Positions 9,642-57,578 of a stretch of DNA of 64,000 nt are shown piece after piece. Source of the stretch: an uncultured Chloroflexia bacterium (GTDB lineage Bacteria > Chloroflexota > Limnocylindria > Limnocylindrales > CSP1-4); assembly GCA_963704145.1 (NCBI GenBank), contig CAVPHB010000002.1, forward strand, positions 1,859-65,858, given 5' to 3'. The translations under genes and the position numbers were made by a program. Every line of letters begins with the position of its first letter. The stretch's first letter is position 1. The notes under the pieces were generated by a model that did not search any database, was not told the DNA's origin, and worked only from the letters and a program-made list of their open reading frames with translations.

Positions 9642-11045
9642 CTAGTGGCGCGCGAGCCGCTCCTCGAGCGATCGGCCGCGGGGCGGCTGCCCAGACTGCT
9701 CGGACAGGCGGTCGACCCGGCCGAGGGCGGCCTGGGCGAAGCGCACGCCGAGCCAGCGCAACGGCTCGGGCTCCCACGCACGCGAGCGGTGGCCGACCAG
9801 CGGCAGCGCGGTGCGCGCGGTCTCTTGCCCGGTGATCAGCTCGGCCAGCGTTCGGCCACTGAGGTTGGCGGTCGAAACGCCGTGGCCGACGTAGCCGCGG
9901 GCGGTCGCCACCCCGGCAGCCCGGTCAAGGGCGATGGTTGGATGCCAGTCGCGCGGCATGCCCAGCGGACCGCCCCAGGCGTGGCTGAAGCGGACGCCGT
10001 GGCGGGCCAGCGCCGGGAACCACTCGCGCGCCAACGAGCGCAGCATCTCGTGCGTCGGTTCGTGCAGGTCGTACTCGTCGCGGATCGGCGACCCGAAGCG
10101 ATATGGCGCGCCACGGCCGCCGAACAACAGGCGGCCGTCGGACGTGCGCGACAGATAGACGACGGTGTAGCGCGGCGAGCCGATCAGTTCGTGCCCCTGC
10201 CAGCCGATCTCGGCCCACACAGCGTCGGGCAGCGGCTCGGTCAGCACGATCAGCGACCAGATCGGAATGAGCGAGCGATGCAGGCGGCGCAGGCGTGTCA
10301 GGTAGGCCTCGCCGGCGAGGACGATCGTGTCGGCCGTCACCGATCCACGGCGGGTTAGCAGCGCAGGCGGCGCATACGCCGACCGCGGCTGGAAGTCGGT
10401 GACCCCCGTCTGCTCGTGGATCGTGGCGCCCATGCGCTCGACCACCCGGGCCAGGCCGCGCGCCAGCTTGGCCGGCTGGATGGCCGCGGCGTCGGGCGTG
10501 AACAAGGCGGCCGTGGCTCGGCCGATGCGCAGGTGCGCGGAGAGTGCCGGTCCGTCGAGGAGCTGGTAGCGCGAGGCGAAGCCGAAGCGGTCCAGCTCGG
10601 CGAACTCGTCCTCGAGCTGGGGCGTCTCGTGCGGGCCGCGGGCGACAATCAGCTCGCCGCCGCGCCGCCAGTCGATATCGATCCCCTCCTCCACGGCCAC
10701 GCGGCCCACCTGGTCGACTGCCTCGAAGACTGCCTCGTACGTTGCCCGCGCGGCGTCGAAGCCGTGCAGCTTCTCCAGCCGGCCGAGCGAGATGTTGAGC
10801 CCCGGCGCGCACCACGCCCCGTTGCGTCCCGACGCGCCGAAGCCACAGATGTCGCGCTCCACGATCACGACGCGCAACGACGGCTGTGCGCGCAACAGGT
10901 AGTAGGCCGTCCACAGGCCGGTGTAGCCAGCGCCGAGGATGGCCACGTCGGCGTGGACGGATCCGTCCAAGGCCGGCCGCGAAGTCAGGTCATCGCCACA
11001 CGATTCGAGCCAGAACGAGACCAACGAGTAGTCGCGCGTGGTCAC
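9642..11045 (-). CDS. FAD-dependent oxidoreductase (PuuB/OrdL-like DAO family)
   Basis: ADVAILGAGYTGLWTAYYL...GFGASGRNGAWC and the C-terminus GYVGHGVSTANLSGRTLAELI. The start is set at GTG 11045. The longer ORF extension to 11549 is antisense to the divergent ALDH gene. Confidence 0.8.
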   Translation of the reverse strand: MTTRDYSLVSFWLESCGDDLTSRPALDGSVHADVAILGAGYTGLWTAYYLLRAQPSLRVVIVERDICGFGASGRNGAWCAPGLNISLGRLEKLHGFDAARATYEAVFEAVDQVGRVAVEEGIDIDWRRGGELIVARGPHETPQLEDEFAELDRFGFASRYQLLDGPALSAHLRIGRATAALFTPDAAAIQPAKLARGLARVVERMGATIHEQTGVTDFQPRSAYAPPALLTRRGSVTADTIVLAGEAYLTRLRRLHRSLIPIWSLIVLTEPLPDAVWAEIGWQGHELIGSPRYTVVYLSRTSDGRLLFGGRGAPYRFGSPIRDEYDLHEPTHEMLRSLAREWFPALARHGVRFSHAWGGPLGMPRDWHPTIALDRAAGVATARGYVGHGVSTANLSGRTLAELITGQETARTALPLVGHRSRAWEPEPLRWLGVRFAQAALGRVDRLSEQSGQPPRGRSLEERLARH

Positions 11046-11109
11046 GGTGATTACGATACGTGTACCCAGCACATCACAACCGAGCCTTGTTGCAGCAGAG
11101 GTCACCACC

Positions 11110-12563
11110 ATGACGCTTACGGCCACGCGTCGCAGCATGTTCATCAACGGAGAGTGGACGGACGCGGCGAACGGCGAAACGACATCGGTCATCAACCCCG
11201 CGACCGAGGAGGCCATCGGCGACGTGCCCAAGGGCGCCGAAGCCGATGCCGACCGCGCCGTGTCGGCCGCCCGGGCAGCGTTCGAGGACTGGTCGCAGAC
11301 CACCCCCGGCGAGCGGAGCCTGATGCTCTGGCGCTGGGCGCAGAAGATCGAGGACAGCAAGGCCGAGCTGTCGGCGCTCGAGTCGGCCAACGTCGGCAAG
11401 CCCAAGGGCGTGGCCGACTTCGACATCGACTTCAGCGTCGACAACCTGCGCTTCTTCGCCGGTGCCGCGCGCGTGCTCGAGGGCAAGGCGGCGGGCGAGT
11501 ACACCAAGGGCTGGACGAGCATGATCCGGCGTGAACCGGTCGGCGTCATCGGCCAGGTCGCGCCGTGGAACTACCCGTTGATGATGGCCATCTGGAAGCT
11601 CGGCCCGGCCCTCGCCGCGGGCAACACGGTGGTCCTCAAGCCGGCCTCGAGCGACGCCGCTGACCGCGCTGGCACTGGCCGAGCTGGCCGCCGACATCTT
11701 CCCCAAGGGCGTGCTCAACGTCATCACCGGGCCGGGCATGACGCTCGGCCAGCAGGCTGATGACGCACCCTGAAGTGGACATGGTCTCGCTGACCGGCGA
11801 CACGGCGACGGGCATCGAGATTGCCGCGGCGGCGGCACAGACGGTCAAGCGCGTCCACCTGGAGCTGGGCGGCAAGGCGCCGGTGGTGGTGTTCGACGAC
11901 GCCGATCTGGGCGCCGTGGTCGAGGCGGTCAAGCTGGCCGGCTTCTTCAACTCGGGCCAGGACTGCACCGCCGCGACGCGGATAATCGCGGGGAGTGGCG
12001 TCTACGAGAAGTTGCTCGCCGATTTAGTGCCGGCAATCCAGTCGCTCAAGGTGGGCAACCCGGCCGACGCCGAGGATCTCGACATGGGCCCGCTCGTGAG
12101 CGCCAGCCAGCGCGAGCGAGTGGCCGGCTACGTCGACCGGGCGCGCGGCTACGGTGCGAGCGTCGTGCTCGGCGGCGGCAGCGGTGCGCACGGCAACGGT
12201 CGCGGCTTCTTCTACGACCCGACCGTCGTGACCGACATCGGCCAGGACTCGGAGATCATCCAGCAGGAAGTGTTCGGCCCGGTCGTCACCGTGCAGCGCT
12301 TCAGCGACGACGAGGAGGCGATCCGCTGGGCCAACGGCGTCCCGTTCGGCCTCGCGTCGTCGGTCTGGACGCGCGACGTCAAGCGGGCACTCAACGCCGC
12401 GCGACGGTTGCGCTACGGGACGGTGTGGATCAACGACCACCTGACGATCGCGTCGGAGATGCCGCACGGTGGCTTCGGCCGCTCGGGCTACGGCAAGGAC
12501 ATGGGCATGTACTCGATCGAGGACTACACGATCGTCAAGCACGTCATGGCCAAGATCAGCTGA
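11110..12563 (+). pseudogene. patD: Gamma-aminobutyraldehyde dehydrogenase-like ALDH (PatD/YdcW-like), disrupted by two +1 frame changes
   Basis: It aligns along its whole length with the recalled E. coli YdcW/PatD (FFAGAARVLEGKAAGEY, APWNYPLMMA.WKL.PALAAGN.VVLKP, ELGGKAP, EMPHGG...SGYGKD). The frame moves 1 to 2 near 11653 and 2 to 3 near 11756. Confidence 0.85.
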
Positions 12564-20549: not shown

Positions 20550-22002
20550 ATGAAGACCACCCCGGCAGCGATCGATCGTCAGCGAATCAAGCGCATCGGC
20601 GACGCGCGAGGAGGCCGAGTACCGGCGCCGAACGCCAAAGTCGGCCGCGCTCCACGAGCGCGCCAAGAGGGCACTGCCGCTGGGCGTGGCCAGCTCGTTC
20701 CAGTCGTACGAGCCTTACCCGCTCTTCATGACCGACGCGCGCGGATCGCGCATCAGGGACGTCGACGGCAACGAGTACATCGACTTCGACATGGCCTTCG
20801 GCGTGCTCGCCGCCGGCCACTCGCACCCCGATGCTTCGCCGAGGTCCTGGCGCGCGCGCGTCGCGAACGGCACCTGCTACACCTTCCCGGTCGAGGACGG
20901 CATCATCCTGGCCGAGGAGATCAAGCGCCGCTTCGGCTGCGACCTGGTGCGCTTCTCCAACTCCGGCACCGAGGCGACGATGGACGCCATCCGCGTCGCG
21001 CGCGGCTTCACCGGCCGCGAGAAGCTGCTCAAGTTCGAGGGCGGCTACCACGGCCACCACGACGACGTGCTCGTGTCGATCCAGCCGCCGCGCGAGCTGA
21101 TCGGGCCCGGCAGAGGCGCCGAGCGACCGTCCCGGCCTCGGCCGGACTGCCGCGCTCGCGCGTCGATGAGACGGTCGTCGCGCCGTACAACAATCCCGAG
21201 GCGCTGGAGGCGATCCTCGACCGCCACCGCGGGCGAGATCGCGGCGATCATCGTCGAGCCGGTGCAGTTCAACATCGGCGTCGTGCCGCCGCTGCCCGGC
21301 TTCCTGGAGCGCGTGCGCGAGCTGGCCACGGCGCACGGCAGCGTGCTCATCTTCGACGAGGTCAAGACCGGGCGTGGTGCTCGCCTACGGTGGCGCGACC
21401 GAGTGGTTCGGCGTCAAGCCCGACCTGTTCTGCCTGGCCAAGAGCATCGGCGGCGGCGTGCCGATCGGCGCCTTCGGCGGCCGCGGCGAGGTCATGGGCG
21501 TGATCGAGCGGCTGCCCGAGTCGCGTCTGGCCGGGGCGACACGGGCACCGCCCTGGAGCACTCGACCATCCCCGGCGGCGCCACGCGCGTGGCCCACCTG
21601 GGCACGTTCAACGGCAACCCGCTGTCGATGGCCGCCGGCGTGGCGGTGCTGACGCGCATCCTGACCCGCGACGTCTACCCCCGACTGCAGGCCATGGGCG
21701 ACCGACTGACCGCCGGCTGCCAGGCGGTGGTCGACGAGTTCGGCCTGCCCGGCTACGCGGTCAACGTCGGCCCCAAGGGCTGCGTCATGTTCACGCCCGG
21801 TCGCGGGTGACCAACTACCGCGACTTCATCGGCCTCGACTCCGAGCTGTGGGCAGGCGTCGTTCTTCTACCTCGCCAACCGCGGCATCCTCCTGCCGCCC
21901 GGACCGGACGACCAGTGGACGCTGTCCGTTCAGCACACCGACGCCGAGGTCGACCGCTACGTCAGCACCTTCCGCGACTTCGCCGCCGAGCTGACCGCCT
22001 GA
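20550..22002 (+). pseudogene. Class III aminotransferase (glutamate-1-semialdehyde aminomutase-like), at least 7 frame changes
   Basis: Recognisable pieces sit in alternating frames: [86 protein letters not shown] and [15 protein letters not shown]. Confidence 0.8.
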
Positions 22003-22018
22003 CCGTCGCTGGCTGTCC

Positions 22019-22113
22019 GTGAGTCGGTTATGTGGATCTGTTGGGCGGTCGACGGTACGGCGCCCGGTGAGGCCGGCCGCGCAGCAAGGTGGTGATCTGC
22101 CTAACCGACTCAA
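22019..22113. repeat. Hairpin (MITE-like) copy of the 20-nt core family
   Basis: GTGAGTCGGTTATGTGGATC at 22019-22038 faces GATCTGCCTAACCGACTCAA at 22094-22113. It lies between two convergent aminotransferase genes. Confidence 0.8.
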
Positions 22114-22187
22114 CGACGGATTGGGGCCAGAGACAACGGCTGCGGACGGCCCGGCGCGGGCCCGGGGGAAGCGACTGGAGACCCGGC

Positions 22188-23535
22188 TCAGGCCACCGGT
22201 AGCGACTCGCCGATGATCGCGATCGCCTGATCGATCTCTGCGTCGGTCGTGACCAGCGGCGGGATCACGCCGCACGACCTGACCGTAGGTGCCGCAGGTC
22301 AGCAGCAGCAGCTTGCGGTCGAAGGCATCGTGGAGCAGCCCCTTGGCCAGGTCCGGGCCGCGGCTGCAGCGTGCCGGGCTCGGCGAACTCGATCGCGGCC
22401 ATCAGGCCGCGGCCGCGCACCTCGGCGACGTAGGGCTTGCCCGCCGTCGACGCGCTGCAGGCCGGCCAGCAGCCGCTCACCCTGCCGCGCGGCGTTGGCG
22501 ACCAGGCCCTCGTCCTCGAACACGTCGAGCGTCGCCAGCGCCGCGGCACAGGCGACGGCGTTGCCACCGTACGTGCCACCGTGCGAGCCGGGCGCGAACG
22601 CCTCGAGCAGCGACCGGCGGGCCATGATGCCCGACAGCGGCAGGCCCGGAGGCGATGCCCTTGGCCATGACGACGACGTCGGGCCACGGCGGCGGTCCAC
22701 TCGGTCGCGAAGAAGCGGCCCGTGCGGCCGTAGCCGGTCTGGATCTCGTCGACGATGAGCAGGATGCCGTGCTGGTCGGCCACCTCGCGCAGCGCCGGCA
22801 GGAAGCCGTCTGAGGGGACCACGTAGCCGCCTTCGCCCAGGATCGGCTCGACCAGGAACGCGGCCACGTCGTCGGGATAGGCCATCGTCGCGAACAGCTC
22901 GTCGATCGCGGCCATGGTGCTGCTCGAGCGCCACTGACGCGCGCCGTCGCCCAGACGCAGCGGATCGGGGAACGGGACGAAGTGCACGCCGCCGGGGAGT
23001 GGCTCGTAATGGCCGCGGTACTTGACGCCGCTGCTGGTGAGGGCCATCGTGCCGTGCGTTCGGCCGTGGAAGCCGCCCCGGAAGGCGACGATCAACGGCC
23101 GCCGCGTGGCGATCTTGGCCAGCTTGACCGAGGCCTCGATCGCCTCGGCACCGGAGTTGGACAGGAACAGGCCGAACTCGGATCGCGGGCGCGGCGGCGC
23201 CGGGAAGAGCCGCGGCAGTCGGTCGTGCAGCTCCAGGCCGGGCTGGTGGTAGAGGATGTTCTGCTGGGCGTGGATGATCTTGGCCGCCTGCTCGGCGATC
23301 GCCGCCGCAACCCGCGGATGGGCGTGGCCGGTGTTGGTCACGCCGATGCCGCTGGTGTAGTCGAGATAGCGCTCGCCGTCGATCGTCTCGATCCACGAAC
23401 CGCTGCCGCGTTCGACGACAAGGTCGGTGTAGCGCGCCCAGACGGGCGCGACGCCGTCGCGCAGGGCCAGCCACGCGGCGGCTCGGCTGGGCGGCGGCGG
23501 CCTGTGTCGGCAGTTGGCTGTGCGGTGACGACCAT
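22188..23535 (-). pseudogene. Class III aminotransferase (GABA/putrescine/acetylornithine-type), at least 3 frame changes
   Basis: YLDYTSGIGVTNTGHAHP, LSNSGAEAIEASVKLA, DEIQTGYGRTGRFFA, GLPLSGIMAR and SHGGTYGGN appear in different frames. The ATG at 23535 and TGA at 22188 were inferred. Confidence 0.8.
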
Positions 23536-23537
23536 GG

Positions 23538-24394
23538 TTACACCTCGGTCGGTCGCTGGTCGAGCGGCTCGCTGCCGGCGCGCCCGACCAGATCTGGAGC
23601 AGCGATGAACAGCGCCAGGCGACGAGCAAAGATGAGCGTGCCCAGCACGTTGACCTCGGGCGGCACGCCGAAGCGGCGAGGCGCCGTAGACCCACAGCGG
23701 GAAGGTCACGCGTCTGCCCGGCGACGAACGAGGTGATGACGTAGTCGTCGATGGACAGCGCGAAGGCGAGCAGCGCGGCGGCCAGGATGCCCGGGAAGAT
23801 GAGCGGCAAGGTCACCTTGCGGAAGGTCGTCCACTCGTCCGCGCAGAGGTCCATCGCCGCCTCCTCGAGCGCGCGGTTGAAGCCGGCGATGCGCGCGCGC
23901 ACGGTGACCACGACGAAGCTGATGTTGAACATGACGTGGGCGATGACGATGGTGGTCAGGCCGCGCTGGGTGCCGAGGCTCACCCACAGCGCCAGCAGCG
24001 AGGCGCCCAGGATCACCTCCGGCGTGGCCATGGGCACGTAGATGAGCAGGTTCAGCGGGCCGCTGCCCGCGGAACTGGTAGCGCGTCAGCGCCAGGCCGA
24101 TGAGCGTGCCCAGGATGGTCGCCACGATCGGTCGCCACGATGGCCACGATGAGGCTGTTGAGCATCGGGCCCGGTGATGTCCGGGCGGTTCCAGACGGTG
24201 AGCGTAGTTCTCGATCGTGAAGCCCTGCCAGGTGATGTTCTGGCGGCCGCAGCGGGTCGTTGAACGAGAAGGCGATCATGACCGCGATGGGCAGGAACAG
24301 GTAGAGCACCGCCAGCGCCGTGTAGCAGCCGGCAGAGACCGCCCGCGACAGGCGCTGGCGCGAGCGGCGGCCGGCGCATCGACATGGCGGTCAT
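23538..24394 (-). pseudogene. ABC transporter permease (PotC-like), multiple frame changes
   Basis: MATILGTLIGLALTRYQFRG, PEVILGASLLALWV and EEAAMDLCADEWTTFRKVTLPLIFPGILAAALLAFALSIDDYVITSF sit in different frames. The start overlaps the upstream stop codon (ATGA). Confidence 0.75.
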
Positions 24395-25251
24395 CCGGAG
24401 GTCAGTTCGCGCGTGCCCACGGCACGCGCGTAGATGGCCACCAGGACCAGCACCGCGCCCATCAGCACGAAGCCCAGGGCGGCCGCCTCCGGGTAGGCGT
24501 TGGTGTTCAGGAACAGACGCTGGATGACGTTGCCGATCATGGTCGTGTCGCGGCTGCCCAGCATGTCCGCGTTGATGAAGTCACCCACGGCCGGGATGAA
24601 GACGAGCAGCGAGCCCGGCGAAGACGCCGGGCATCGAGAGCGGCAGGGTGACCCGCCGGAAGGCCTGCAGTCGGCTGGCATACAGGTCGTTGGCCGCCTC
24701 GATCAGGCTGCGGATCGATCTTCTCCAGGGCGACGTACAGGGGCAGGACCATGAACGGCAGGAAGTTGTAGGTCAGGCCGCTGATGACCGCCAGGGGCGA
24801 GGCCAGCACGTGGAAGCTCGGGTCGAGCAGGCCCATGTCCTTGAGCGTGCCGAGCACGAAGCCGTTGTCGGACAGGATCAGCCTCCAGTTCAGCGTGCGG
24901 ATGACGAACGCGGTGAAGAAGGGCAGGATGACCAGCAGCAGCAGGATGTTCTTGGCGCGCCCACCGCGGAAGGCGATGGTGTAGGCGATGGGGTAGCCGA
25001 TGAGCAGCGTCAGGACGGTGACGATCAGCGCGTAGATCGACCGAGCGCACGAACTGGTGGCAGTACTCGATCATGACCTCGGGCGTAGACGCCGAAGTTC
25101 CAGGTCAGCGCGAAGCCGGTCCCGAGCGTGCCCTCCTGCAGGCTGAGCGACGACCATGACGATCATCGGCACGACGAAGAAGACGATCAGCCACAGGCCG
25201 CCCGGGACCAGGAACAGGTACGGCGTCAGCCAGCGCAGGCGGCGGCGGCAT
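24391..25251 (-). pseudogene. ABC transporter permease (PotB-like), multiple frame changes
   Basis: LTPYLFLVPGGLWLIVFFVVP, LGTLKDMGLLDPSFHVLASPLAVISGLTYNFLPFMVLPLYVALEKID and LLVFIPAVGDFINADMLG sit in different frames. Confidence 0.75.
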
Positions 25252-25294
25252 CCCGGCCCTCGGTCAGCTGGCTGCCGCCACGGCCGTAGCCGGC

Positions 25295-26608
25295 TCAGCC
25301 GATGACGCACCTCGTTGAAGAGGTCGTTCCAGATGCGCTCCTCGTCCTCGGTCAGGATCTTGTAGTCGTAGATGTTGGCCGAGCTGCTCCGCGGTCGGGA
25401 AGGCGTCGATCGCGACCTGAGTCCAGCGTCGGCCGCGCATTCCGCGTCGACCCTCGTCACGCGCGGCCTGCGGCGTCGAGCCGGACCTGCTCCTGGACGC
25501 CGGTCGACGGGGCTGAAGTAGCCGATGTACTCGGTCAGCGGTCGGCCGCCTCGAGCGTGTACCAGTAGTCCATGAAGCATGAGCGCGTCGGTCGGGTGCT
25601 GCGGCGCCGTTGGGGATGACCATGTTGTCGACGAACAGCATGCCGCCCGTCTCGCGGGACGACGAACTTCGACGTCGGGGTTGTCGTACAGCTGCATCTG
25701 GCTGACGTCACCTGACCAGGCCATGGTGATGGCCAGGTCGCCGGCCGCGAGCGCGTCGTAGTAGTCGTTGCCGTAGAAGTCGCGGAACTGGCCGGCCTGG
25801 GCCGGACCCGAGCAGCTTGTCCTGCGCCGCCTGGACGTCGCCGATCGGTCGCGTCCTCCGGCTGCACGCCCATCGACAGCAGGGTCAGGCTCATCGTGTC
25901 GCTCATCTCGCTGAAGAGGCCGACGCGGCCGGCGAAGGCGGGATCGAGCAGGTCGTCGAAGGTGGTGATCGCGCGCCCGGTCAGCTTCGGGTTGTAGCCG
26001 ATGCCGACGATGCCGGCCTGCCACAGGATACGGAGTAGCACGTTGCCCGGGTCGTACCACGGGTCGCGCAGCACATCCTGGGCGTTGGCCTGCCAGTTGG
26101 GCAGCAGCGACTTGTCGAGCGGCTGGAGGTAGCCCAGGCGGATCATGCGCTCGATCATCCAGTCGCTCGGGGCGATGACGTCGTAGCCGGTCGAGTGCCC
26201 GGCGGCGAGGTCAGGCTGGATCTGGCCGAAGAACTCCGCGTTGTCGGCGATGGCCTCGATGTAGGTCGACGTGCGATGCCGGTCTCGGCGGTGAACTGGT
26301 CGAGCGTCGGGTAGGCGCCGGTCTCCTCGTCGATGTCGATGTAGAGGGGCCAGTTGCCGAAGATGACCTGCCCGGCGATGCGTGGGCTGCGGGTCGGCGC
26401 CGGGTGTCGGTCGGTGCGGCGGCCGGCCGCGGCGTGTGATCCGGCTGGCGGCGACGGCCAGGGCGTGGCCGAGGCACGCATCGGCTGGCGTCGGCGCGAC
26501 GGTCGGTGCAGGAGTCGGGCTCTGCGCGGCGATGCCACAGGCACGCAGACCAGCGGTCGATGCGACAGCCGATGGCCATCGACCGCGCGTCACTCTTAGC
26601 TCAGGCAT
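25295..26608 (-). pseudogene. Polyamine-type ABC substrate-binding lipoprotein (PotD/PotF-like), multiple frame changes
   Basis: The pieces are GQVIFGNWPLYIDIDEETG, IEAIADNAEFFGQIQPDLAAGHSTGYDVIAPSDWMIERMIRLGYLQPLD, GGMLFVDNMVIPNGA and IYDYKILTEDEERIWNDLFNEV. The stop position is approximate. Confidence 0.7.
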
Positions 26609-27761
26609 TGGCTGTTCCTCCTCCGGCTTGGATGACGAAGGTGTGCTGCGGCTTCCAGCTCAGCACGCACCGCGCTGGCCGGCCGAGAGCTGATCGCCGG
26701 CACCGCTCACCTCGATGTTCTGGCTGTAGACGACGACGTCGTGGCCGTCGTCGGTGCGGACGACGTACTGCGTGCTGACGCCGACATAGCTGGCGTCGAG
26801 GACGCTGCCGTCGAGCGAGTTGCTGGCTCAGCGGCGTCTCAGACGCGCCGGGCTCGGCTCGTCGAGCTGCGATCAGGTGCAGCTTCTCGGGCCGCACCCC
26901 GACCTGCACGCGCGTCGCCCTGGCGCAGGCCGTCGGCCGGCGCGCGCACCCGCGTGCCCGACGTCGAGCTCGAGCGCGACCATGTCTCGCATCGCGCCCG
27001 ACGACAGTCGCCGGCAAGCAGGTTGCGACACGCCCAGGAAGCCGGCCACGAACGCGGTCGCCGGGCGCTCGTAGAGCTCCTCCGGGCCGCCCAGCTGCTC
27101 GATCCGGCCGGCGCGCATGACGGCGATGCGGTCGGACATCGTCATCGCCTCATCCTGGTCGTGGGTGACGTAGACGAAGGTGATGCCGACCTCGGTCTGG
27201 ATGCGCTTGAGCTCGAGCTGCATCTGCTTGCGCAGCTTCAGGTCGAGCGCGCCGAGCGGCTCGTCGAGCAGCAGCACCTCGGGGTGGTTGATCAGCGCCC
27301 GGGCCAGCGCGACGCGCTGCTGCTGGCCGCCGGACGAGCTGGCTGGGCTTGCGCCGCTCGTAGCCGGGCAGCTCGACCAGCTCGAGCATCTCACCCACCT
27401 GGCGGCTGATCTCGTCGCCGTCCGACCTTGCGCCGGCGCAGGCCGAAGGCGACGTTCTCGAAGACGTTCAGATGCGGGAAGAGGGCGTAGTTCTGGAAGA
27501 CCGTGTTGACGTCGCGCTTGGTAGGGCGGCCGATTGGTGACGTCCGCCTCGCCCAGGATAGATCGGTGCCGGCGCGTCGACCTCCTCGAAGCCGGCGATC
27601 ATGCGCAGCGTCGTCGTCTTGCCGCAGCCCGACGGGCCGAGCAGCGAGAAGAACTCGCCGCTGCTCGATGTCGAGCGACAGGTCGTCGACGGCCACGACA
27701 TCGTGAAAGCGCTTGGTGACTCGGTCGAGCCGTACGTCGGTCTGGGCCAAGCCAACCTCAT
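26601..27761 (-). pseudogene. ABC transporter ATP-binding protein (PotA-like), multiple frame changes
   Basis: Walker A ([25 protein letters not shown]), signature and Walker B ([31 protein letters not shown]) and VRPEKL sit in different frames. An alternative start is TTG 27750. Confidence 0.8.
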
Positions 27762-28675
27762 CGGAACGTGTCCGGCCGCGCGCCTGGGTGCGCCGCCGGA
27801 CGGATAGCCCCCGTCGATCGACCGCGAGTATAGGCCGTCCGCCAGGCACGCCCGATTGTGTCGCGTGACGTCGCCGCTGAGCGCTGGGCAAGGTAGACCG
27901 GGATGCACGCTGAGCACGATCAGGACCAGCGCCACGACGTTGACGACAGGCAGCTCGTTGGGACGCTGGATGGCCGCGAAGATCCACATCGGCACTGTCT
28001 GCGTGCCGGCGCCGGCAGTGAAGATGGTCACGATGACCTCGTCGAATGACAGGCCAAAGGCGAGCAGGCCGCCGGACGACGAGCGCGGTGCAGCATGCCC
28101 GGCAAGGTCACCCGTCCGGAAGGTCGTGAAGGCATCTGCGCCAAGGTCGGCCGACGCCTCCTCGGGCGATGCGCGGGCAGGCGCCGCAGACGGGCGATGA
28201 CGTTGTTGTAGACGACCACCACGCAGAACGTGGCGTGGCCGATCGATGATCGTCATCAGGCCGAGGTCGATGCCGAACGTGGTGAACGTCGTGCGTAGGG
28301 CGATGCCCGACACGACGCCGGGCAGCGCGATGGGCAGGACGCAGGAGGAACGAGATCGGTCTGGCGGCCGAAGAAGTCGTAGCGCTGCACGGCCAGCGCG
28401 GCGAGCGTGCCCAGGACAGAGCGCGACCGAGTCGCCGCGCCGGCCGCAGCGAGCGAGTTGTCACGACCGCGCTGATGACGCCCGGGTTGTTGGCCGCCTC
28501 GGCGAACCAGTTGAGCGTGAAGCCAGCCGGCGGCCATGCTTGCAGCCGGCTGGTGTTGAAGGCGTAGATGGCCAGCACGACGATGCGGCAGGTAGATGAA
28601 GGACAGGATCGGCCACCGTCGCCAAGCGCAACGCGACCCGGACGAAACGCGGCTCAGCCACTGTGCCGTGCTCAC
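27758..28675 (-). pseudogene. ABC transporter permease (PotC-like, second operon), multiple frame changes
   Basis: AIYAFNTSRLQAWPPAGFTLNWF and [53 protein letters not shown] sit in different frames. The start and upstream stop overlap as GTGA. Confidence 0.7.
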
Positions 28676-29612
28676 AGCGACTCGAAGGCGCCCAGGCGCC
28701 GAGCGAGCAGAAGGTAGACGATCATGATCGCCGATCGGTACGAGCGAGTAGGCCGCGGCCAGGGGCAGGTTGACGTTGGCCGAGTTGTCATAGATCACGT
28801 TGCCGATGAACTTCGCGTCCGAGACCAGGTCGGGCGTGATGTAGTCGCCCAGGGTCAGCGAGAACGAGAAGATCGAGCCGGCCACGAGCGCCGGGAAGAC
28901 GAGCGGCAGGACGACCCGCCGGAAGGTGGTCAAGGCTGCGCGCCGCCCAGGTCGGCCGATGCCTCGAGGAGCGAGTTCGGGATGCGCTCAAGGCCAGCGT
29001 AGACGGGCAGGATCATGTAGGGCAGCCACAGGTAGCTGAGGACCAGCCACGAGTTGAGCTCAGCCGGATAGACCCGGGCCGCTGCATGCCAAATGGGCGT
29101 CGAGCAACCAGTCGACCAGGCCGTTGCCCTGCAGGATGATGCGCCACGAGTAGACCTTGACCAGGTACGCCGCCCAGAGTGGGATGAGCACGGCGACGAC
29201 GAGAAAGCCGCGCATCCGTGGCGATGCGATGCGCGCCATGTAGTAGGCGATGGGGATGGCCAGCAGCGCGTCGGTGATGGTCACGAGCACCGCCATGCCG
29301 ACATCGTCCGTATCGGCGATGGTGCCGTAGACCGCGTTGCTGACCAGCGTCTCGAAGGCGGCGAGCGTCCAACTGAACGGCTCGACGCGGCCGGTGAACG
29401 CGTCCTTGGCCCAGAGCGAGTTAAGTAGCAGGATGAGCGAGCGAGCCGAGATAGGCGATCAGCAGCCAGCCGACCGGCCCGGCCAGCAGCGGCGCGCAGC
29501 TGCACGCCGCGGCGCGGTGCAGCCACGATCCGAGGCGACGACGCAGGCTGCGCTGTGGCGCCGGCCTCGAGTACCTCGGGGGTCGTGAGTCGGGACGGTC
29601 GACTAGGCTCAT
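28672..29612 (-). pseudogene. ABC transporter permease (PotB-like, second operon), multiple frame changes
   Basis: AVLVTITDALLAIPIAYYMARIASPRMRGFLVVAVLIPLWAAYLVKVYSWRIILQGNG and TTFRRVVLPLVFPALVAGSIFSFSLTLGDYITPDLV sit in different frames. Confidence 0.75.
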
Positions 29613-29676
29613 GCGCTTCCTAGAGTCGAGGGCTCCCCGGCTTACGCTCGGGGAGCCCTTGAAGCGGTGTTCCGGA

Positions 29677-30912
29677 TTAGCGGATCAGCTGCCGCGCAGC
29701 GTGGTCCATGCCTGGACCCAGTCGTCCTGGGCTCTTGCACGTGGTCGCCGCGTCGTCGTCGGCGCAGTCGGCCTGTGGGGTGCTCCAGTACCAGATCGTT
29801 GTCCCAGTAGGCTTCGTCATCGGCGTGCGCAGATGCGCAGTGACCGGGCGACAGCGTCTCGGCGAACTCGCACGCCTGTGGGCTGGTCGCGCCTCGCCGA
29901 ACCAGACCGTGCGCCTGCGACGTTCGCCTCGGCCGACATCATGTGGTCCATCCACATGAGCATGCAGTTCGGATGTGCTGCGTTCTTGGCCATCATCCAG
30001 GTGTCCGACCAGCCGGTCGAGCCCTCGTCGGGCTGCACGCCAGCAATCGGCCGACGCCGTCGCCTGGAGCAGGTTGGACCTGAAGCTGCCACGTCGTGCC
30101 GACGACGACGTCGCCGGCGGCATACGACGCGATCTGGTCGGTGTAGGTCGCCCCAGTACAGCGGCGCGTTGGCCTTCTGTGCGTCGAGCAGCGCGATCGC
30201 TGCCGCGAATTGCTCTTCGTTGAGCTGATACGGGTTGGTAGATGCCCAGCTCGGGCTGCGTGGCCATCAGGTGCACCGCGGCGTCGGCGATGTAGATCGA
30301 CGAGTCGTAGATGCTGATGTCGCCGGCGTAATCCGAGCCGCCTTCCCACACCGGCGTCCCAGCTGGTGGGCGCCTCGGTTACCAGCATCGGTGTTGTACA
30401 TGAGCAGGTTCGGCACCACGTCCGTGCGGCACGCCGTAGTTGACGCCGTCGACGGTGTTGTGCGGCAGGTCCTTGAGGCCGTCAAAGACGTTGGCGTAGT
30501 TGGGCAGCATCGACGTGTCGATCGGGGCGACGTAGTCGCCCGAGATGAGCCGCGTCGTCGCGTCGCCCGAGGCCGAGATGCCGTCGTAGTTGCCCGACTG
30601 GATTAGTGAAACGCCGTTGTTCGAGTCGGTCATGTCGGTCGTGTTGACGGCACAGCCCGTTCGCTCTTCGAACGGCGTCACCCAGTCATAGGCCGGGTCG
30701 ACTGCGCCGCGCTCGGCGTAGCCAGCCCAGATGACCAGGTTGAGCGCGCCCTCGCCCGGGCCAATGCCGGCAGGCGTTGGTACGGCCGTTGGTGCGGCCG
30801 TTGGTGCGGCCGTTGGTGCGGCCGTTGGTGCGGCCGTTGGTGCGGCGCCGGCACAGGCCGAAGCCACCAGCGCGGTGATGGCGATGAACCCCCAGATGCG
30901 TCGGTTGGTCAA
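29677..30912 (-). pseudogene. Polyamine-type ABC substrate-binding lipoprotein with an (APTA)n linker, frame changes in the C-terminal two thirds
   Basis: TTG start, lipobox ALVASAC, an (APTA)5 linker, then LNLVIWAGYAERG...FEERTGCAVN. Later pieces are in other frames. Confidence 0.75.
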
Positions 30913-32025
30913 GACTCCTCCTTGTCGTGGATGCCCTCGTGGGTGAGTGTCAGATTATGAATGCGTTTCCAGGTCAGGCGCACCCTTTTTTCTTCGAGTG
31001 CGAGCGCCTCTGACGAAGATGTGGCCAGATTCTGTTGGGCGACGACCAGTTGCGCGCCCGCGTCAAGCTCGACGATGTAGCGTGTTTCGTGGCCCAGGTA
31101 GATCACCTTGCCGATGTGGCCGAGGGCCGAAACCTCGTCGGCTGCCGGCTGGTCGTCCGGCTCGACCAGGCGGATCTTCTCCGGTCGGACGGTGAACGTC
31201 CCGGCGTGGCCGACGATCGCCCGGGCGACTTCGCCGCTGAGCAGGTTGGACGTCCCCACGAAGCCGGCCACGAATTGGGTCGCGGGGCGCTCGTAGACGT
31301 CGGCCGGGGTGCCGATCTGCTCGATCCGGCCGTGGTTGAAGACGGCCAGCCGATCGGACATCGTCAGCGCCTCGCCCTGGTCGTGGGTGACATAGATGAA
31401 GGTGATGCCGACCTGCTGCTGGATCTGCTTGAGCTCGATCTGCATCTCCTCGCGCAGGCGCAGGTCGAGCGCGCCCGAGTGGCTCGTCGAGCAGCAGCAC
31501 GCGCGGCCGGTTGACCAGCGCTCGGGCGAGCGCGACGCGCTGGCGCTGGCCGCCCGACAGCTGGCCCGGCTGGCGCTGCTCGTAGCCTTCGAGGCGGACC
31601 ATGCGCAGCGCCTCCTCGACCCGAGTCTCGACGCGTGGCGCGGTCGACCTTGCTTGATCATCAGGCCGTAGCCGACGTTGTCGCCGACCGTCATGTGCGG
31701 GAACAGCGCGTAGTCCTGGAAGACGGTGTTGACGTCGCGCTCGAACGGCGGCACGTTGGTCACGTCCTGGCCGTGGAGCAGGATGCGGCCGCTGCGTCGG
31801 CAATTCGAAGCCGGCGATCATGCGCAGCGTCGTGGTCTTGCCCGAGCCGGACGGGCCGAGCATCGAGAAGAACTCGCCGTCGCGCACCTCGAGGTCGATG
31901 CCGGCCACGGCGACGACGTCGCCGAAGTGCTTGACGACGTGCTCGAGCTGCACGGCCAGCGACGGTGCGTCACGGGGCGCGCCGGGCGCGCCTGATTGCC
32001 CTCTCGTATCAGCGGCCAGCGCCAC
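30909..32025 (-). pseudogene. ABC transporter ATP-binding protein (PotA-like, second operon), frame changes in the middle
   Basis: [25 protein letters not shown] (one frame) and DVNTVFQDYALFPHMTV...ITFIYVTHDQGEALTMSDRLAVFNHGRIEQIG...VRPEKI (another frame). Confidence 0.8.
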
Positions 32026-32149
32026 AACCCCTCCGAACCGGTGAAGTAGGGCGACTATCAGCGCAGGCGCAGGCGACTGTCAAGCGCTGGCTGAGCGCAC
32101 GCGGGTCCAGCGGCGCGGGTTGGCGCCGATCCGGTCATGCACCTGGTCC

Positions 32150-36385: not shown

Positions 36386-37310
36386 GACTCGGCTTCCTGA
36401 CCGCACCCTTTCCCGAGACGCCGCTCATGGACGTCGCCGATTGGGCGGCGGCAAACGAGTTCGACAGCCTGGAGATCGCCTGCTGGCCGCCGTTCGAGCG
36501 GTGCCACGCGGCGCTACGCAGGCACTTCCCACATCGACGTCGTCAACCTGTCCCAGTCAGCGGCGAGTGACCTCGTCGGCCAGATCGCGGCGAAGGGCCT
36601 GGCCATCTCCGGCCTGGGCTTCTATCCCAACCCGCTGCACCCGGATCGCGCCACTGCGTGCCGCGGCGATCGCGCACATCAGGAAGGTCATCGAGGCGGC
36701 GCGATTGATGGGCGTGCCGTTCATGAACACCTTCATGGGCGGCGACCCGGCCAAGAGCCTCGACGAGAACTGGGCAGGCCGCGCTGCGAGGTCTGGCCTG
36801 ACATCGTCCGCCACGCGCAGGACCAGGGCGTGCAAGATCACGATCGAGAACTGCCCGATGATCTTCTCGCGCGACGAGTGGCCGGGCGGCAACAACATCG
36901 CCTGGTCGCCCTACATCTGGCGGCGCATCCTCGAGCAGTGGGGCGGCACCGTCGGGCTCAACTACGACCCATCGCACCTGGTCTGGCTGATGATCGACCA
37001 GGGCCGCTTCATCCGCGAGTTCGGGCCGCACATCCTTCACTTCCAGGCCAAGGACGTGATGATCGATCGCGACGGACTGTACGAACGGGGCACCATGTCG
37101 TCCGGCATCGGCTGGCAGATTCCGCGCCTGCCCGGACTGGGCGACGCCAATTGGGCCGAGATCTTCTCCAATCTTTACCGCGTCGGCTACGACGGGGACT
37201 GCATCATTGAGCACGAGGATCGGCGCTTCGAGGGCACCGACGCGCTGGTCAAGCGCGGCTTCCTGCTGGCGCGCAACATCCTGCGCCCGTACATCCCGAA
37301 GGAGTCGTGA
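36382..37310 (+). pseudogene. Sugar phosphate isomerase/epimerase (xylose-isomerase-like TIM barrel), about 4 frame changes in the first half
   Basis: MRLGFLTAPF and SLEIACWP are in one frame, GTSHIDVVNLS in a second, and IENCPMIF...LNYDPSHLVW...FQAKDV...IIEHED in a third. The start is coupled to the upstream stop as ATGA. Confidence 0.75.
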
Positions 37311-37316
37311 GCGCCG

Positions 37317-38068
37317 ATGAGTGACCTGTTCGAGCGCCTGACCTACGCTCAGATCGCCAAGACGATCGACCACTCGCTGCTCCGACCCGAGCTGGACGAC
37401 GAGTTCATTGCGCAGGGCCTTCGCCTGGCCGCCGAATACGACGTCGCCTCGGTCACCGTGCGCCCGGTCGACGTCGTGCGCGCGGTCGAGATGCTGCGCG
37501 GGACGGACGTCAAGGTGGGCACGGTGGTCGGCTTCCCGCACGGCGACGTGTTGACCGAGACCAAGGTGTTCGAGGCACACCGCGCGCTCGAGCAGGGCGC
37601 GCGCGAGCTGGACATGGTGCATCCAGATCAGCTGCGCTGCGCTCCGGGCGCGACGGTGACGTGCGCGCCGATATCGCGGCCGTGGTCGAGCCGGCCCACG
37701 CCGCCGGCGCGATCGTCAAGGTCATCTTCGAGAACGCGTACCTGACCGACGACGAGAAGATCCGCGCCTGCCGCGCGACCGAGGCCGCCGGCGGCGACTT
37801 CGTCAAGACGTCGACCGGTTTCGCGCCGACCGGCGCCACGCACGACGACCTGCGCCTGATGCGCGCCAACACCGGCATGCACATCGCGGTCAAGGCGGCC
37901 GGCGGCGTGCGCACCCTTGACGCGCTGCTGGCGGTCATGGAGCTGGGCGTGACGCGCGTCGGCGCGACGGCGACAAAGGCGATGCTCGACGACTTCAGGG
38001 CGCGCAAGGCGGGCACCGCCGCGGCTCAGCCGGCGGCGGTCGGGACAGCGGACAGGGGCGCCTACTAG
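37317..38068 (+). pseudogene. deoC: Deoxyribose-phosphate aldolase, 2 frame changes near 37620-37660
   Basis: IAKTIDHSLLRP and VGTVVGFPHG are in one frame. KVIFENAYLTDDEKIRACRATEAAGGDFVKTSTGF...HIAVKAAGGVRT is in another. Confidence 0.8.
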
Positions 38069-38886
38069 GTGAACGGCGGCGGTTCCGCGACGATGCTGCC
38101 CGCCTCGACGCTGCGCTGGCTGGGCGACGCCCAGGCGCTGCTGGAGCGCATCGTCGACGACGCAGGCCGACGCCATCGAGCAGGCCAGCCAGTGGTGTGC
38201 CGAGGCGATCGCCGCCGACGGGCTGGTCGCATCTGTTCGGCACGGGCCACTCGCGCATCCCGGTCGAGGAGATGTTCCCGCGCTACGGCTCGTATCCGGG
38301 CTGGAACCCGATGATCGAGCTGTCGATGACCTTCGTCGGCCAGGTGGTCGGCACGAACGGCCAGCGCCAGGCGATGTTCGTCGAGCGGACGCCCGGCCTG
38401 GCCGAGGTGATCCTGTCCAACTTCACCTTCGGCCCTGGCGACCTGATGATGATCTTCTCGGCCAGCGGCCTGAGCACGGTGCCGGTCGAGATGGCGCGCG
38501 GCGCGCGGGCGCGCGGCCTGCGTGTCATCGCGGTCACGTCCGTGGCGCAGTCGATGTCGTCTGAGCCGGACGAGGCGGCCGGCGCGCGGCTGCTCGATGA
38601 GGCTGACCTGGTGATCGACCTGTGCACGCCGGCGGCGGACGCACTAACGATGATCGATTATCTTGAGACACCGGTGGGCCCGGGCTCTACCATCGCTGCG
38701 GTCGCCATCGTCAACTCCATCAAGGTCCGCACCGCCGAGCTCCTCGTGGAGCGTCAGGCAATGCCGCCAGTCATCACGCGTAGCGCGGTGGTGGGTGAGG
38801 CTCGGTCGCGGGCTCTGTTCGACAAGGCATACCGGGAACACGCGCGGCGGATCGCGCGGGTTCTCGATCAACAAGGAGGTGAATGA
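38069..38886 (+). pseudogene. SIS-domain (UPF0309-type sugar isomerase-like) protein, 1 frame change near 38160
   Basis: GTG start. LFGTGHSRIPVEEMFPRYGSYPG and MMIFSASGLSTVPVEMARGARARGLRVIAVTS. The last 690 nt are intact. Confidence 0.7.
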
Positions 38887-40244: not shown

Positions 40245-41786
40245 ATGAACGTCACGACCGAGTTGCTGCTCGAAGCGACCGGGATTACCAAGGCCTACGG
40301 CGCCGTCGTCGCGCTCAAGTCGCCTCGCTCGCCGTCAGGCCCGGCGAGGTCCATGCCCTGATGGGCGCCAACGGCGCCGGCAAGAGCACGCTGGTCAAGA
40401 TCCTGACCGGCGCGGTACGACCCGACAGCGGCCGCATCGTTGTCCGCGGACGCGAGCGGACCTCCCACTCGCCGGCCGAGGCACGGCGCAACGGCCTGAT
40501 CTCGCGTCTACCAGGAACCGGCGGTCATTCCCGACCTCGATATCCGCTCCAACCTGAGCCTGACCGACACACCCGTCGAGACCATTCCGGCACTGGCTGA
40601 ATGAGCTCGGCCTGGGCGATCTCGACCTGTCGAGCCTGGCGCGCCGGCTGCCGCTGGCCTCGCTGCGCATCGTCGATCTTGCCCGTGCACTGGCCATCGA
40701 GCCCGACGTGCTGCTGCTCGACGAGATCACCGCGGCGCTGCCGGCCAACCTGACCGAGCGCGTGCTGGAGATCATCCGCGCGCCCGCGCGGCGACAAGTG
40801 CGTCATCTTCATCTCGCACCGGCTGATCGAGATCGGCGCGGTGCTGCGATCGGGCGACGGTGCTGCGCGAGGGCGAGACCGTCGGCGTGGTCGACGTAGC
40901 CGCCGGCTCGGAGGACCGGATCGTCGAGCTGATGCTCGGCGAGAGCGCGGCTTCCCTCGGGAAGCGAGCGGCCGAGACGGCCGGGGCGGTGGCGCCGGCC
41001 ACGGAGCGGACGCCGCGCATCTCGGCACGCGAACCTGGGCCGATGGCCGGCTGCACGAGGCGTCATTTGATCTCTATCCGGGCGAGGTGCTGGGCGTCGT
41101 CGCGCTCGAAGGCCAGGGCCAGGACGAGCTGTTCGGCATCCTTTCCGGTGCTCAGCGCCCGACTGGCGGCACACTGCGGGTGGACGGCAGGCCCGCGTCC
41201 TTCGACCATCCAGCCGATGCCATCCGCGCCGGCTTCGTCTACGTGGCGGCCGACCGGGCGGAGGCGCTCCTGATGCAACGCTCGGTGCGCGAGAACATCG
41301 CGCTTGCCCAGCGGTGCACGCATCCGCAACTGGGGCTGGATCAACCTGGCCAAGGAGGGGCAGACCGTCGGCGACGCGGTCGAGAAGCTCCAGATCGACG
41401 CCCGCGCCGGCGGCGAGGTGCGCCGGCTGTCGGGCGGCAACCAGCAGAAGGTGACGATTGCTCGCTGGGTCGCCGGCGGCGTCAGGACGATGCTCTGCTT
41501 CGACCCCACGCGAGGCATCGACATCCGGACCAAGAACCAGATCTACCTGCTGCTGCGCGACCTCGCCCGAGCCGGAGCTGCAATCCTGCTCTACACGTCC
41601 GAATTGAAAGAGATCGAGCTGGTCTGCGACCGCGCGATCGTGATCTTCGGTGGCGAGGTGGTCGCCGAGCTGCCGGCGGCAGACGCTGACGAGGCGGCCC
41701 TGCTGCGTGCCGCCCACAACCTCAGCGCGGACGCGCCACTGCCCGAGGCAATGATCGCTCAGACGGCCACGGCGGCCGACGCATGA
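40245..41786 (+). pseudogene. Sugar ABC transporter ATP-binding protein (two NBDs, RbsA/MglA-like), multiple frame changes
   Basis: [65 protein letters not shown] and ILLYTSELKEIE sit in different frames. Confidence 0.8.
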
Positions 41787-42793
41787 GCGCAGCCGCCGCG
41801 AGCGCCGGCGAGGCCCGCGCGCGACCCGTTGACTTGCTCCGAGCGTGGGCGAGCAACAATTCTTGGACGCTGGGACTGCTGGTCTTCCTGGGCGTTCTGC
41901 TCGTGTTCACCAAGATCATTCAACTCGTCCTACGGCGTCACCGACGTGCAGGGCCTGGCGATCTCGGTCCTGCCGCTGGCCCTGGCGGCGGTCGCCCAGA
42001 CGGTCGTCGTCATCAGCGGCGGCATCGATCTTTCGATCGCCTCGGTCGATGGCCCTGACCAGTTGCGTCACCGCAGTGCTGATGGCAGGACCAGAGCCCG
42101 GAGGTGGGGGTGCGGTGGTCATCGCCGTGCTGCTGTTCGGGCTCGTCATCGGCGCCGTGAATGGCGCATTGGTGGTCGTCACGCGGGTGCCGGACATCGT
42201 CGTCACGCTGGCGATGGGTTTCGTCTGGGCCGGCATCGCGCTGCTCGTCCTGCACAGCACCGGGCGGCTCCACGGCACAGTGGCTGAAGGACCTGGTCAT
42301 CGGACCCTCGTCATCGAATGGATCCCCAAGGCCGCCGTTCGCTGCTCATCGTGTCGTGGCCATCGTCTGGATCCCGTCTGACGCGATCGCAGCTTGGGCT
42401 GTCGCTGTACGCCGTTGGTAGCAACCAGCTGGCGGCGTTCCGGAGCGGCGTATCGGTCGGCCGGACGAAGGTCATCTCGTACGTCCTCACCGGCTTCTTC
42501 GCCACGCTCGCCGGCCTCTCGCTGACCGCCAGCACGGGCATCGGCACGCCGGTTCCGGAGGCACCTACGTGCTGCTCGCCATCGCCGCCGTCGTCCTGGG
42601 CGGCGTCAGCCTGGCGGGTGGCGTCGGCGGCGTGCTCGGACCCATCGTCGCGGTGCTCGTGCTGCAGCTGATCCGCAACGACATGACATACCTGCGGGTC
42701 GATACCAACCTGGGCACGGTCGCCCAGGGCCTGATCCTCGTCGGCGTGCTGATGGTCGCTAACTACATCCAGATTCGCCGGCGCCGAGCATGA
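41783..42793 (+). pseudogene. Sugar ABC transporter permease (RbsC-like), multiple frame changes
   Basis: AVAQTVVVISGGIDLSI, VTRVPDIVVTLAMGFVWAG, LYAVGSNQLAAFRSGVSV and AIAAVVLGGVSLAGGVGGVLG sit in different frames. The start is coupled as ATGA. Confidence 0.75.
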
Positions 42794-43784: not shown

Positions 43785-43787
43785 AAC

Positions 43788-57567: not shown

Positions 57568-57578
57568 GCTGGCTCGGC

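Follow-up and report, generated by a model that had tools for sequence, protein, structure and literature searches.

Patchy uncorrected single- and double-base insertions very probably explain the fragmented Pot-type transporter and aminotransferase genes of a Chloroflexota contig

Programmed frameshifting and transcriptional slippage involve one, rarely two, events per gene, located where a slippery sequence or a homopolymer is conserved. The consensus errors of nanopore and HiFi assemblies are usually dominated by homopolymers. Genuine pseudogene clusters of bacteria under reductive evolution contain adjacent genes with multiple frameshifts, and in curated pseudogenes of high-GC Burkholderia 300 insertions have been counted against 396 deletions, over a wide range of sizes (PMC6054270). 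Fragmentation of genes by short indels has also been documented for long-read assemblies (PMC12007338), and the artefactual pseudogenes of long-read or hybrid assemblies are characterized by short indels only, partial open reading frames (ORFs), spurious fusions and otherwise conserved proteins. The assembly errors described in the literature are mainly linked to homopolymers and include many deletions. As to gene content, the closest described systems are the PotABCD and PotFGHI importers with adjacent class-III aminotransferases, and intact syntenic operons of the order ATPase, solute-binding protein (SBP), permease, permease and aminotransferase are present in Chloroflexota metagenome-assembled genomes (MAGs).

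The window analysed here, i.e. the whole 64-kb stretch of a Chloroflexota contig, holds at 20550-32025 a block of two class-III aminotransferases and two PotA/SBP/PotB/PotC-type ABC sets, in which each of the ten genes needs 4-12 frame changes by frameshift-aware alignment; the genes adjoining the block are uninterrupted. The protein-to-DNA aligner was written for this analysis, validated with planted lesions, and run with 2-4 intact orthologs per block gene, the reference proteins being drawn from a metagenome scan, a representative search and PDB alignments. At ~72% identity, a multiple alignment of cluster 1 at the DNA level had too much noise for indels to be placed, hence the use of the protein-guided aligner. 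With the best reference per gene, at least 82 frame events were counted in the block, about one per 136 nt. In a GC3 frame plot the coding phase flips repeatedly from ~20.6 to ~31.8 kb and is constant over 12.5-20.5 kb, GC3 being ~0.9 throughout each frame segment of the block, and in the uncorrected block the Pfam domains Aminotran_3, BPD_transp_1, SBP_bac_6/8, ABC_tran and TOBE_2 are found only piecewise, in separate frames. The frame hopping is confirmed as real and far beyond chance, and the original prediction, that ten genes of ten require multiple changes, agrees with the 4-12 per gene and 82 in total given by the aligner. It had also described 12583-20489 as undisrupted, which holds for the coding phase; however, a 971-aa ORF that it counted there as a gene (12556-15471, - strand) is not a real one, being the antisense shadow of a 1009-aa gene on the + strand at 12469-15498 and having no domain match.

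The first gene of the block, AT1 (20550..22002, + strand), encodes a class-III aminotransferase of the glutamate-1-semialdehyde-aminomutase-like type, as judged from Pfam and from three-way nucleotide and protein-guided alignment; its corrected protein spans positions 4-427 of the 429 of NF000818 (NCBIfam). At least seven changes had been claimed for this gene, including -1 shifts. The count agrees with ours: protein-guided alignment gives 7 frame events (6-7 net), and the three-way nucleotide alignment with two relatives, L090 and L091, yields 9 insertion events and 0 deletions private to the window. Seven of the insertions are of 1 nt and two of 2 nt, and they lie at ~20603, 20829, 20854, 21109, 21122, 21233, 21374, 21798 and 21854. 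The supposed -1 shifts are better read as 2-nt insertions, CG being privately inserted at 20829 and 21798. AT2 (22188..23482, - strand), a class-III, GABA-aminotransferase-like gene on which three references agree, carries five +1 events at ~22685, 22648, 22452, 22358 and 22270; once corrected, its protein shares 76-77% identity with intact orthologs and matches its NCBIfam model over the full length.

The remaining eight genes all lie on the - strand. In cluster 1, the PotC-like permease permC1 (23538..24390; 9-10 +1 events) and the PotB-like permease permB1 (24391..25253; five +1 events at ~25155, 25085, 25039, 24710 and 24617), both assigned by the aligner and NCBIfam, are followed by the PotD/PotF-like solute-binding protein SBP1 (25305..26520; 10-12 events, mostly +1) and the PotA-type ATPase potA1 (26625..27833; 10-11 events, mostly +1). 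Cluster 2 comprises the PotC-like permC2 (27848..28715; 11 events, 9 of +1 and 2 of +2, with four references in agreement), the PotB-like permB2 (28675..29722; 7-8 events), the YdcS-like SBP2 (29688..30921; 11-12 events, mostly +1) and the PotA-type potA2 (30909..32031), where four references agree on four +1 events at ~31795, 31653, 31630 and 31477, and where the error patch has its right-hand end. After correction, the proteins of the block match their families over the full length (NCBIfam), and the gene set is of the Pot type: both ATPases exceed the curated TIGR01187 cut-off of 355.6 bits (387.5 for potA1, 375.8 for potA2), and each stands in one operon with PotB/PotC-like permeases and an SBP. 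The corrected block thus resembles the PotABCD and PotFGHI importers in its ATPase, permease and binding-protein matches, but the permeases, although aligned to the PotB/PotC models over the full length, and the two SBPs (SBP1 weakly PotD/F-like, SBP2 YdcS-like) score below the equivalog cut-offs, so that the substrate, a polyamine or a related amine, stays putative.

Two causes had originally been proposed for these lesions, localised uncorrected indel errors and operon-wise pseudogenisation. The former is strongly supported: from the patterns in the sequence, the block very probably consists of intact genes overlaid with patchy uncorrected consensus errors, in the form of 1-2-base insertions of technical origin. 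The latter is contradicted on five counts, namely the insertion-only spectrum of 1-2 nt, the lack of nonsense codons, purifying selection, the presence of patches in unrelated operons and the assembly-specific nature of the lesions. The lesions are almost certainly neither pseudogenisation nor a biological feature.

A recent genuine pseudogenisation, in which polyamine uptake and catabolism were lost and frameshift mutations are eroding the genes, would fit the disruption of ten functionally related genes beside intact adjoining regulators, and the limits of the patch (20603-31795), which roughly match those of the gene cluster. The lesion spectrum speaks against it. The 82 events divide into 67 of +1, 11 of +2 and 4 of -1, all of 1-2 nt, where true 2-nt insertions are shown only by the AT1 nucleotide alignment and the rescoring of the other +2 events is not independent of anchoring. 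Essentially all are extra bases, at least 78 of the 82 being insertions, in contrast to the deletion-leaning and size-diverse natural spectrum, under which so many insertions would have a probability of 6e-24 (PMC6054270). Nor is there the mixture of frameshift and nonsense expected of decay: beside the 82 frameshifts, none of the 3,502 aligned codons of the block genes is an in-frame stop, which bears out the earlier impression that obvious nonsense substitutions are missing. A stop would arise from ~2.65% of random substitutions in the block codons; assuming a substitution:indel ratio of 5:1, one would predict 10.9 nonsense codons, and the probability of finding none is 2e-5. Very short indels with no excess of nonsense or missense changes are what an artefact would leave.

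Furthermore, selection appears not to have been relaxed in the disrupted lineage. The private AT1 substitutions of the window are distributed 5:3:28 over codon positions 1:2:3 (p = 1e-7), 78% of them at the third position, a pattern that indicates purifying selection in this lineage. For 8 of the 10 genes, identity of the corrected protein to intact orthologs is 72-86%, a conservation equal to that of functional orthologs; identities are lower for AT1 (~0.52, with distant intact references) and SBP1 (~0.55).

The block had been implied to be unique, yet at least three more patches with like lesions lie in the window, in unrelated genes of sugar, aldehyde and CoA metabolism. In a reference-free, two-strand codon-usage Viterbi analysis, 115 of the 118 frame jumps fall inside four patches of 27 kb in total, and the clean 36 kb of the window has a single jump, a gene-junction artefact. 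A uniform error process, already discounted in the original prediction, is excluded by this clustering (P = 8e-28 under a uniform rate). The second patch (36490..38840, + strand; 6 jumps by Viterbi) covers a xylose-isomerase-like TIM-barrel gene, a SIS-domain gene and one neighbour, whose Pfam domains are full length once corrected. The third (40310..46900, unstranded; 26 jumps by Viterbi) includes a sugar-type ABC ATPase, a BPD_transp_2 permease, a ROK kinase, an amidohydrolase and only the C-terminal half of an Oxidored_FMN/Pyr_redox_2 gene, and the fourth (53310..60340, - strand; 29 jumps by Viterbi) a CoA-transferase, a DHDPS-family gene, an aldehyde dehydrogenase (7-8 events, mostly extra bases, with 0 stops), a LacI regulator and a GMC oxidoreductase (1 event). 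Correction restores full-length domains in these patches as well (Aldedh 1-460/461, ROK 1-289/294, BPD_transp_2, DHDPS and SIS_2). In addition, a second aldehyde dehydrogenase in otherwise clean sequence, just upstream of the 1009-aa gene (11032..12563, + strand), is split by two +1 events at ~11652 and ~11749, its Pfam Aldedh match lying in two frames (1-165 and 198-461). The edge of the third patch bisects its Oxidored_FMN/Pyr_redox_2 gene (45869-48044, - strand), of which the N-terminal 1,150 nt are clean and the C-terminal 1,025 nt carry 6 lesions; a clean stretch of 1,150 nt has a probability of 2e-4 at the lesion density of the block. The patches are thereby shown to be independent of gene function and of gene borders.

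Comparison with orthologous loci, proposed with the original prediction, showed that the lesions belong to each assembly and lie at other sites in each. The nearest relatives are ~80% identical to the window in the AT2 protein and ~87% in AT1 nucleotides, the latter value applying to both L090 (a JGI metagenome) and L091 (ENA ERZ25039487 'contig_13914', 390 kb, with a Flye-style name). In the three-way alignment, the L090 copy of AT1 shows deletions only (17, with 0 insertions) and the L091 copy a mixture of 5 deletions and 4 insertions; none of the lesion sites is shared among the three sequences, so the lesions are private to each assembly. L091 shows the same gene-fragmenting behaviour as the window, of the artefact type described for long-read assemblies (PMC12007338), and is patchy elsewhere too: its saccharopine-dehydrogenase ortholog has 7 jumps, and the copy in the window is intact. 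As controls, four loci of other metagenome or MAG assemblies (among them L005, a short-read Logan assembly) gave 1-3 Viterbi calls per 9-21 kb, and those calls that were checked fall at gene junctions. With three intact neighbours and the public gene call P0001 as queries, exact-sequence searches of the databases turned up no second, independent contig from this organism. Compared with genuine pseudogene clusters (PMC6054270), then, the block resembles them in having adjacent genes with multiple frameshifts, but it has neither nonsense codons nor diverse indel sizes, its selection signatures are intact and its patches are not bound to function; we consider pseudogenisation highly improbable.

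A mixture might be considered in its place, in which most lesions are errors and one or a few genes of the block hide a real inactivating frameshift. The 82 events are too many to be vetted one by one from sequence, and gene content at this locus varies among relatives, AT2 being missing from L091. However, every gene shows only the background of 1-2-nt insertions, without stops or large deletions, and the lesion density per gene tracks gene length and patch membership, so this case is very unlikely too.

A recoding system, with genuine extra bases that programmed frameshifting, transcriptional slippage or RNA editing would bypass, is scarcely credible, and so is an origin of these bases in localised insertion-biased hypermutation, since the strikingly uniform single-base lesions and conserved proteins, which recoding would also give, come with 4-12 events per gene lacking a slippery motif, homopolymer association or any strong shared k-mer motif (an apparent link to GATC being due to chance), the patches ignore gene boundaries, the orthologs of relatives lack extra bases at the same sites, and we know of no such bacterial recoding system. 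Real extra bases would imply an insertion-only, non-homopolymer process acting on tracts of 2-11 kb in one Chloroflexota chromosome, with the genes either read in the correct frame or very recently inactivated, and this too we hold to be most improbable.

Under the preferred explanation, uncorrected consensus error, the consensus of the block would never have reached finished accuracy, and about one spurious base, sometimes two, per ~136 nt would shift the frame of ordinary intact genes. The 394-kb contig would be a mosaic of high-accuracy stretches interspersed with low-accuracy ones 2-11 kb long, the block being the longest of the latter within the window. The cause may be heterogeneity of consensus or polishing at the scale of read length, for example where gaps were filled or bridged by few long reads, or where short-read polishing failed locally. 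The block shares with the artefactual pseudogenes of long-read and hybrid assemblies the restriction to short indels, the partial ORFs, a spurious fusion (P0001) and the conservation of its proteins, but it differs from the errors of the literature in that those of the window are almost purely insertions, are not associated with homopolymers and occur in sharp patches of 2-11 kb rather than being evenly distributed. Two observations sit awkwardly with this explanation: an insertion-only residue fits no single platform neatly, and extra bases that are not enriched in homopolymers are atypical for a nanopore or HiFi consensus.

As for sequence context, no homopolymer enrichment was found at the extra bases (mean run 1.39, with 1.47 expected locally, p = 0.35), and homopolymer slippage was rejected as the source of the insertions, runs at the best repair sites being of the length expected from the surroundings. 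A k-mer comparison revealed no strong motif shared by the lesions, and association with GATC (Dam) sites is at chance level, with 8.3-8.5 sites per kb in patch and clean sequence alike. GC content was likewise rejected as a cause of the patches, its values being 0.67-0.72 in patch as in clean sequence. A further point against the preferred explanation is that the patches are depleted of G/C homopolymers with a length of 4 or more.

The finding is a data-quality warning only, and has no biological import. Stretches with an insertion error of roughly 0.7% make up some 42% of the window (27 of 64 kb). The public gene calls derived from them, such as the truncated P0121 and the 588-aa 'permease-aminotransferase fusion' P0001, which joins the C-terminus of permC1 to the N-terminus of AT2, are artefacts that find their way into protein databases and into homology searches. 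Pseudogene counts, metabolic capacities and reports of fusion proteins or novel ORFs derived from this contig, or from assemblies like L091, would be misleading unless the sequence is re-polished or its genes are called in a frameshift-aware manner. Most likely, two functional Pot-type importers and two aminotransferases are present in the organism.

The frame-broken block (20550-32025) comprises ten genes, i.e. a class-III aminotransferase on the + strand (AT1), a second class-III aminotransferase on the - strand (AT2), and two consecutive ABC-importer sets on the - strand, each in the order ATPase, solute-binding protein (SBP), permease, permease. The G+C content of the window is ~70%, and its closest relatives in the databases are Chloroflexota metagenome-assembled genomes. 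In the raw sequence of the block, Pfam domains are recovered only partially and scattered across frames; ATPase-SBP-permease-permease-aminotransferase operons are intact and collinear in three related loci (L001, L002 and L005). Upstream, the interval 9642-16754 contains a FAD-dependent (DAO) oxidoreductase, an aldehyde dehydrogenase and a saccharopine dehydrogenase, which, taken with the aminotransferases and the Pot-type importers, fit a neighbourhood for amine/polyamine catabolism. The stretch before the block also encodes two large regulators, both of the adenylate/guanylate-cyclase plus AAA_16/AAA_22 (+TPR) type, one of 1009 aa at 12469-15498 (+) and one with additional N-terminal zinc ribbons at 16968-20489 (-). 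At the N-terminus of the SBP of the second importer set (SBP2; ~30780-30850, -), an (APTA)n repeat forms a Pro/Thr/Ala linker, APTAAPTAAPTAAPTAAPTAVPTP, after a lipoprotein-like hydrophobic leader whose last residue is Cys. In the related contig L091, positions 9700-12912 (corresponding to 20603-25244 of the window) carry AT1 directly followed by PotC/PotB-like permease homologs and lack AT2; gene content at the AT1 locus therefore differs among relatives.

A GC3 frame plot shows that the coding phase jumps repeatedly from ~20.6 to ~31.8 kb and is constant in the adjoining genes. Frame events were located by an aligner of protein to DNA, based on dynamic programming, in which ±1 and ±2 frameshifts are explicit transitions; it recovered planted lesions to within 1-2 nt. 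It was run for each gene against 2-4 intact orthologs, drawn from L001, L002 and L005, from 80 metagenome loci matched by an SBP2 fragment and, for AT1, from representative proteins; positions obtained with independent references agree closely. The original observation that every gene of the block is multiply frame-shifted is confirmed: each of the ten carries 4-12 events, 82 in all, which gives a spacing of ~136 nt from the first lesion at 20603 to the last at 31795. Five extra bases are predicted in 22.2-22.7 kb and eight in 28.0-28.7 kb. The constant phase of the neighbouring genes bears out the claim that they are intact, except that the 971-aa ORF counted among them (12556-15471, -) is not a real gene; it has no domain match and is the antisense shadow of the 1009-aa + strand cyclase/AAA/TPR gene. 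In otherwise clean sequence, the aldehyde dehydrogenase at 11032-12563 (+) has two +1 events (~11652 and ~11749), a mini-patch of ~100 nt that separates Aldedh positions 1-165 from 198-461.

The 82 events comprise 67 of +1 (a single extra base in the window), 11 of +2 and four of -1. Shifts of both signs had been read in 20550-22002; those taken as -1 are accounted for by 2-nt insertions, since modulo 3 a gain of two bases shifts the frame just as the loss of one does. In curated pseudogenes of high-GC Burkholderia, by contrast, deletions outnumber insertions (396 versus 300) and mean indel sizes range from several to ~19 nt (PMC6054270), and under that spectrum 78 or more insertions among 82 events would arise with a probability of 6e-24.

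As had been suspected from the reading frames, nonsense codons are absent, with no in-frame stop in the 3,502 aligned codons of the ten block genes. About 2.65% of random substitutions in the block codons would create a stop, so that at a modest substitution:indel ratio of 5:1 about 11 nonsense codons are expected (P = 2e-5 for the zero observed). After frame correction, eight of the ten proteins share 72-86% identity with intact orthologs; SBP1, the SBP of the first set, reaches ~55%, and AT1, whose sole intact full-length references are distant, ~52%. Several of the closest AT1 homologs in the databases (P0141, P0230, P0132, P0148 and P0123) are themselves frame-scrambled translations. NCBIfam models match the corrected proteins over their full length, and both ATPases clear the curated threshold of the polyamine ABC transporter ATP-binding protein family, TIGR01187. 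Substitutions private to the window in AT1 are distributed over codon positions 1, 2 and 3 as 5:3:28 (p = 1e-7), a signature of purifying selection in just that lineage which supposedly bears nine frame-breaking insertions in this gene.

Those insertions come from a three-way AT1 alignment of the window with two relatives ~87% identical in nucleotides, L090 (JGI metagenome contig, JGI 3300043312) and L091 (ENA ERZ25039487 'contig_13914', 390 kb). The private indels of the window are nine insertions (seven of 1 nt, two of 2 nt) and no deletions, those of L090 no insertions and 17 deletions, and those of L091 four insertions and five deletions, at sites that differ throughout. L091 is likewise patchy, but elsewhere: its saccharopine-dehydrogenase ortholog has seven jumps, whereas the window copy is intact. 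Breakage of AT1 at separate sites, with an indel bias particular to each of the three assemblies, is how technical error behaves, and not inherited or convergent gene decay.

That the block is the sole disrupted stretch had been implied, and this does not hold, as three further patches carry like lesions. A reference-free, two-strand codon-usage Viterbi segmentation with penalised frame jumps, which catches about 65% of homology-mapped lesions, places 115 of its 118 jumps in four patches totalling 27 kb (20.6-31.8, 36.5-38.8, 40.3-46.9 and 53.3-60.3 kb). Of the remaining three, two are the pair that splits the aldehyde dehydrogenase (11.65-11.75 kb), and one, at 15489, is an artefact of an overlapping gene junction; the other 36 kb are clean (P = 8e-28 if the rate were uniform), as foreseen in the claim that a uniform error process cannot explain the distribution. 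Four control loci from other assemblies gave 1-3 calls per 9-21 kb, and the two calls checked sit at gene junctions. Correction in the other patches restores near-full-length domains across the jumps (Aldedh 1-460/461, ROK 1-289/294, BPD_transp_2 6-268/269; also ABC_tran, DHDPS, SIS_2, AP_endonuc_2 and CoA_trans), as well as Oxidored_FMN and Pyr_redox_2, in genes unrelated to polyamines. The aldehyde dehydrogenase of the fourth patch, aligned to PDB chains of two solved structures, has 7-8 events, most of which are extra bases, and is free of stops. In the Oxidored_FMN plus Pyr_redox_2 gene at 45869-48044 (-; ~724 aa, 2,4-dienoyl-CoA-reductase-like architecture) the 5' 1,150 nt are clean and the 3' 1,025 nt hold six lesions, and thus a patch edge falls within a single gene.

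Short indels that fragment genes, as in the block, are typical of long-read assemblies, where insertions are bound to homopolymers more weakly than deletions (PMC12007338). Best-scoring single-base repair of 39 isolated +1 sites removed bases of all four kinds and revealed no homopolymer extension at these sites (run length 1.39 versus a local expectation of 1.47, p = 0.35); an apparent association of lesions with GATC was due to chance. Unexpectedly, the two transporter clusters have only 2.7-2.9 G/C runs of at least 4 per kb, compared with 3.9-7.2 in clean window sequence and 3.8-9.9 in intact orthologous operons, and the depletion in patches deepens with length (patch:clean ratios of 0.64, 0.46 and 0 at lengths 4, 5 and 6), which may be the fingerprint of a consensus algorithm. 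The patch scale of 2-11 kb would fit read-length-scale heterogeneity, with bridging or gap-filling by few long reads, or polishing that failed locally, as candidate causes; the sequence does not name the platform.

Localised uncorrected indel errors, one of the two alternatives originally proposed, thus very probably explain the block, being supported by the indel spectrum, the zero nonsense count, the selection signature, the other patches and the relatives' own lesions. There is a residual possibility that the errors conceal a genuine lesion, or that the insertions themselves are genuine. Five independent observations contradict the other alternative, operon-wise pseudogenisation of polyamine uptake and catabolism: the insertion-dominated spectrum, the lack of in-frame stops, the signature of selection, the recurrence of lesions in unrelated patches, one with its edge inside a gene, and the assembly-specific lesions of the relatives.

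Gene calls from the 394-kb contig CAVPHB010000002.1 are accordingly unreliable. The public call P0001 (22265-24037, -) is a 588-aa chimera of a permease C-terminus (PF00528) and an aminotransferase N-terminus (PF00202), which arose because frame errors took out the stop separating the two genes, and it stands in a public protein collection as an artefactual 'fusion protein'. Public data on this lineage seem to consist largely of error-prone assemblies, and the frame breaks genuinely belong to the sequence as deposited, but not to the organism.
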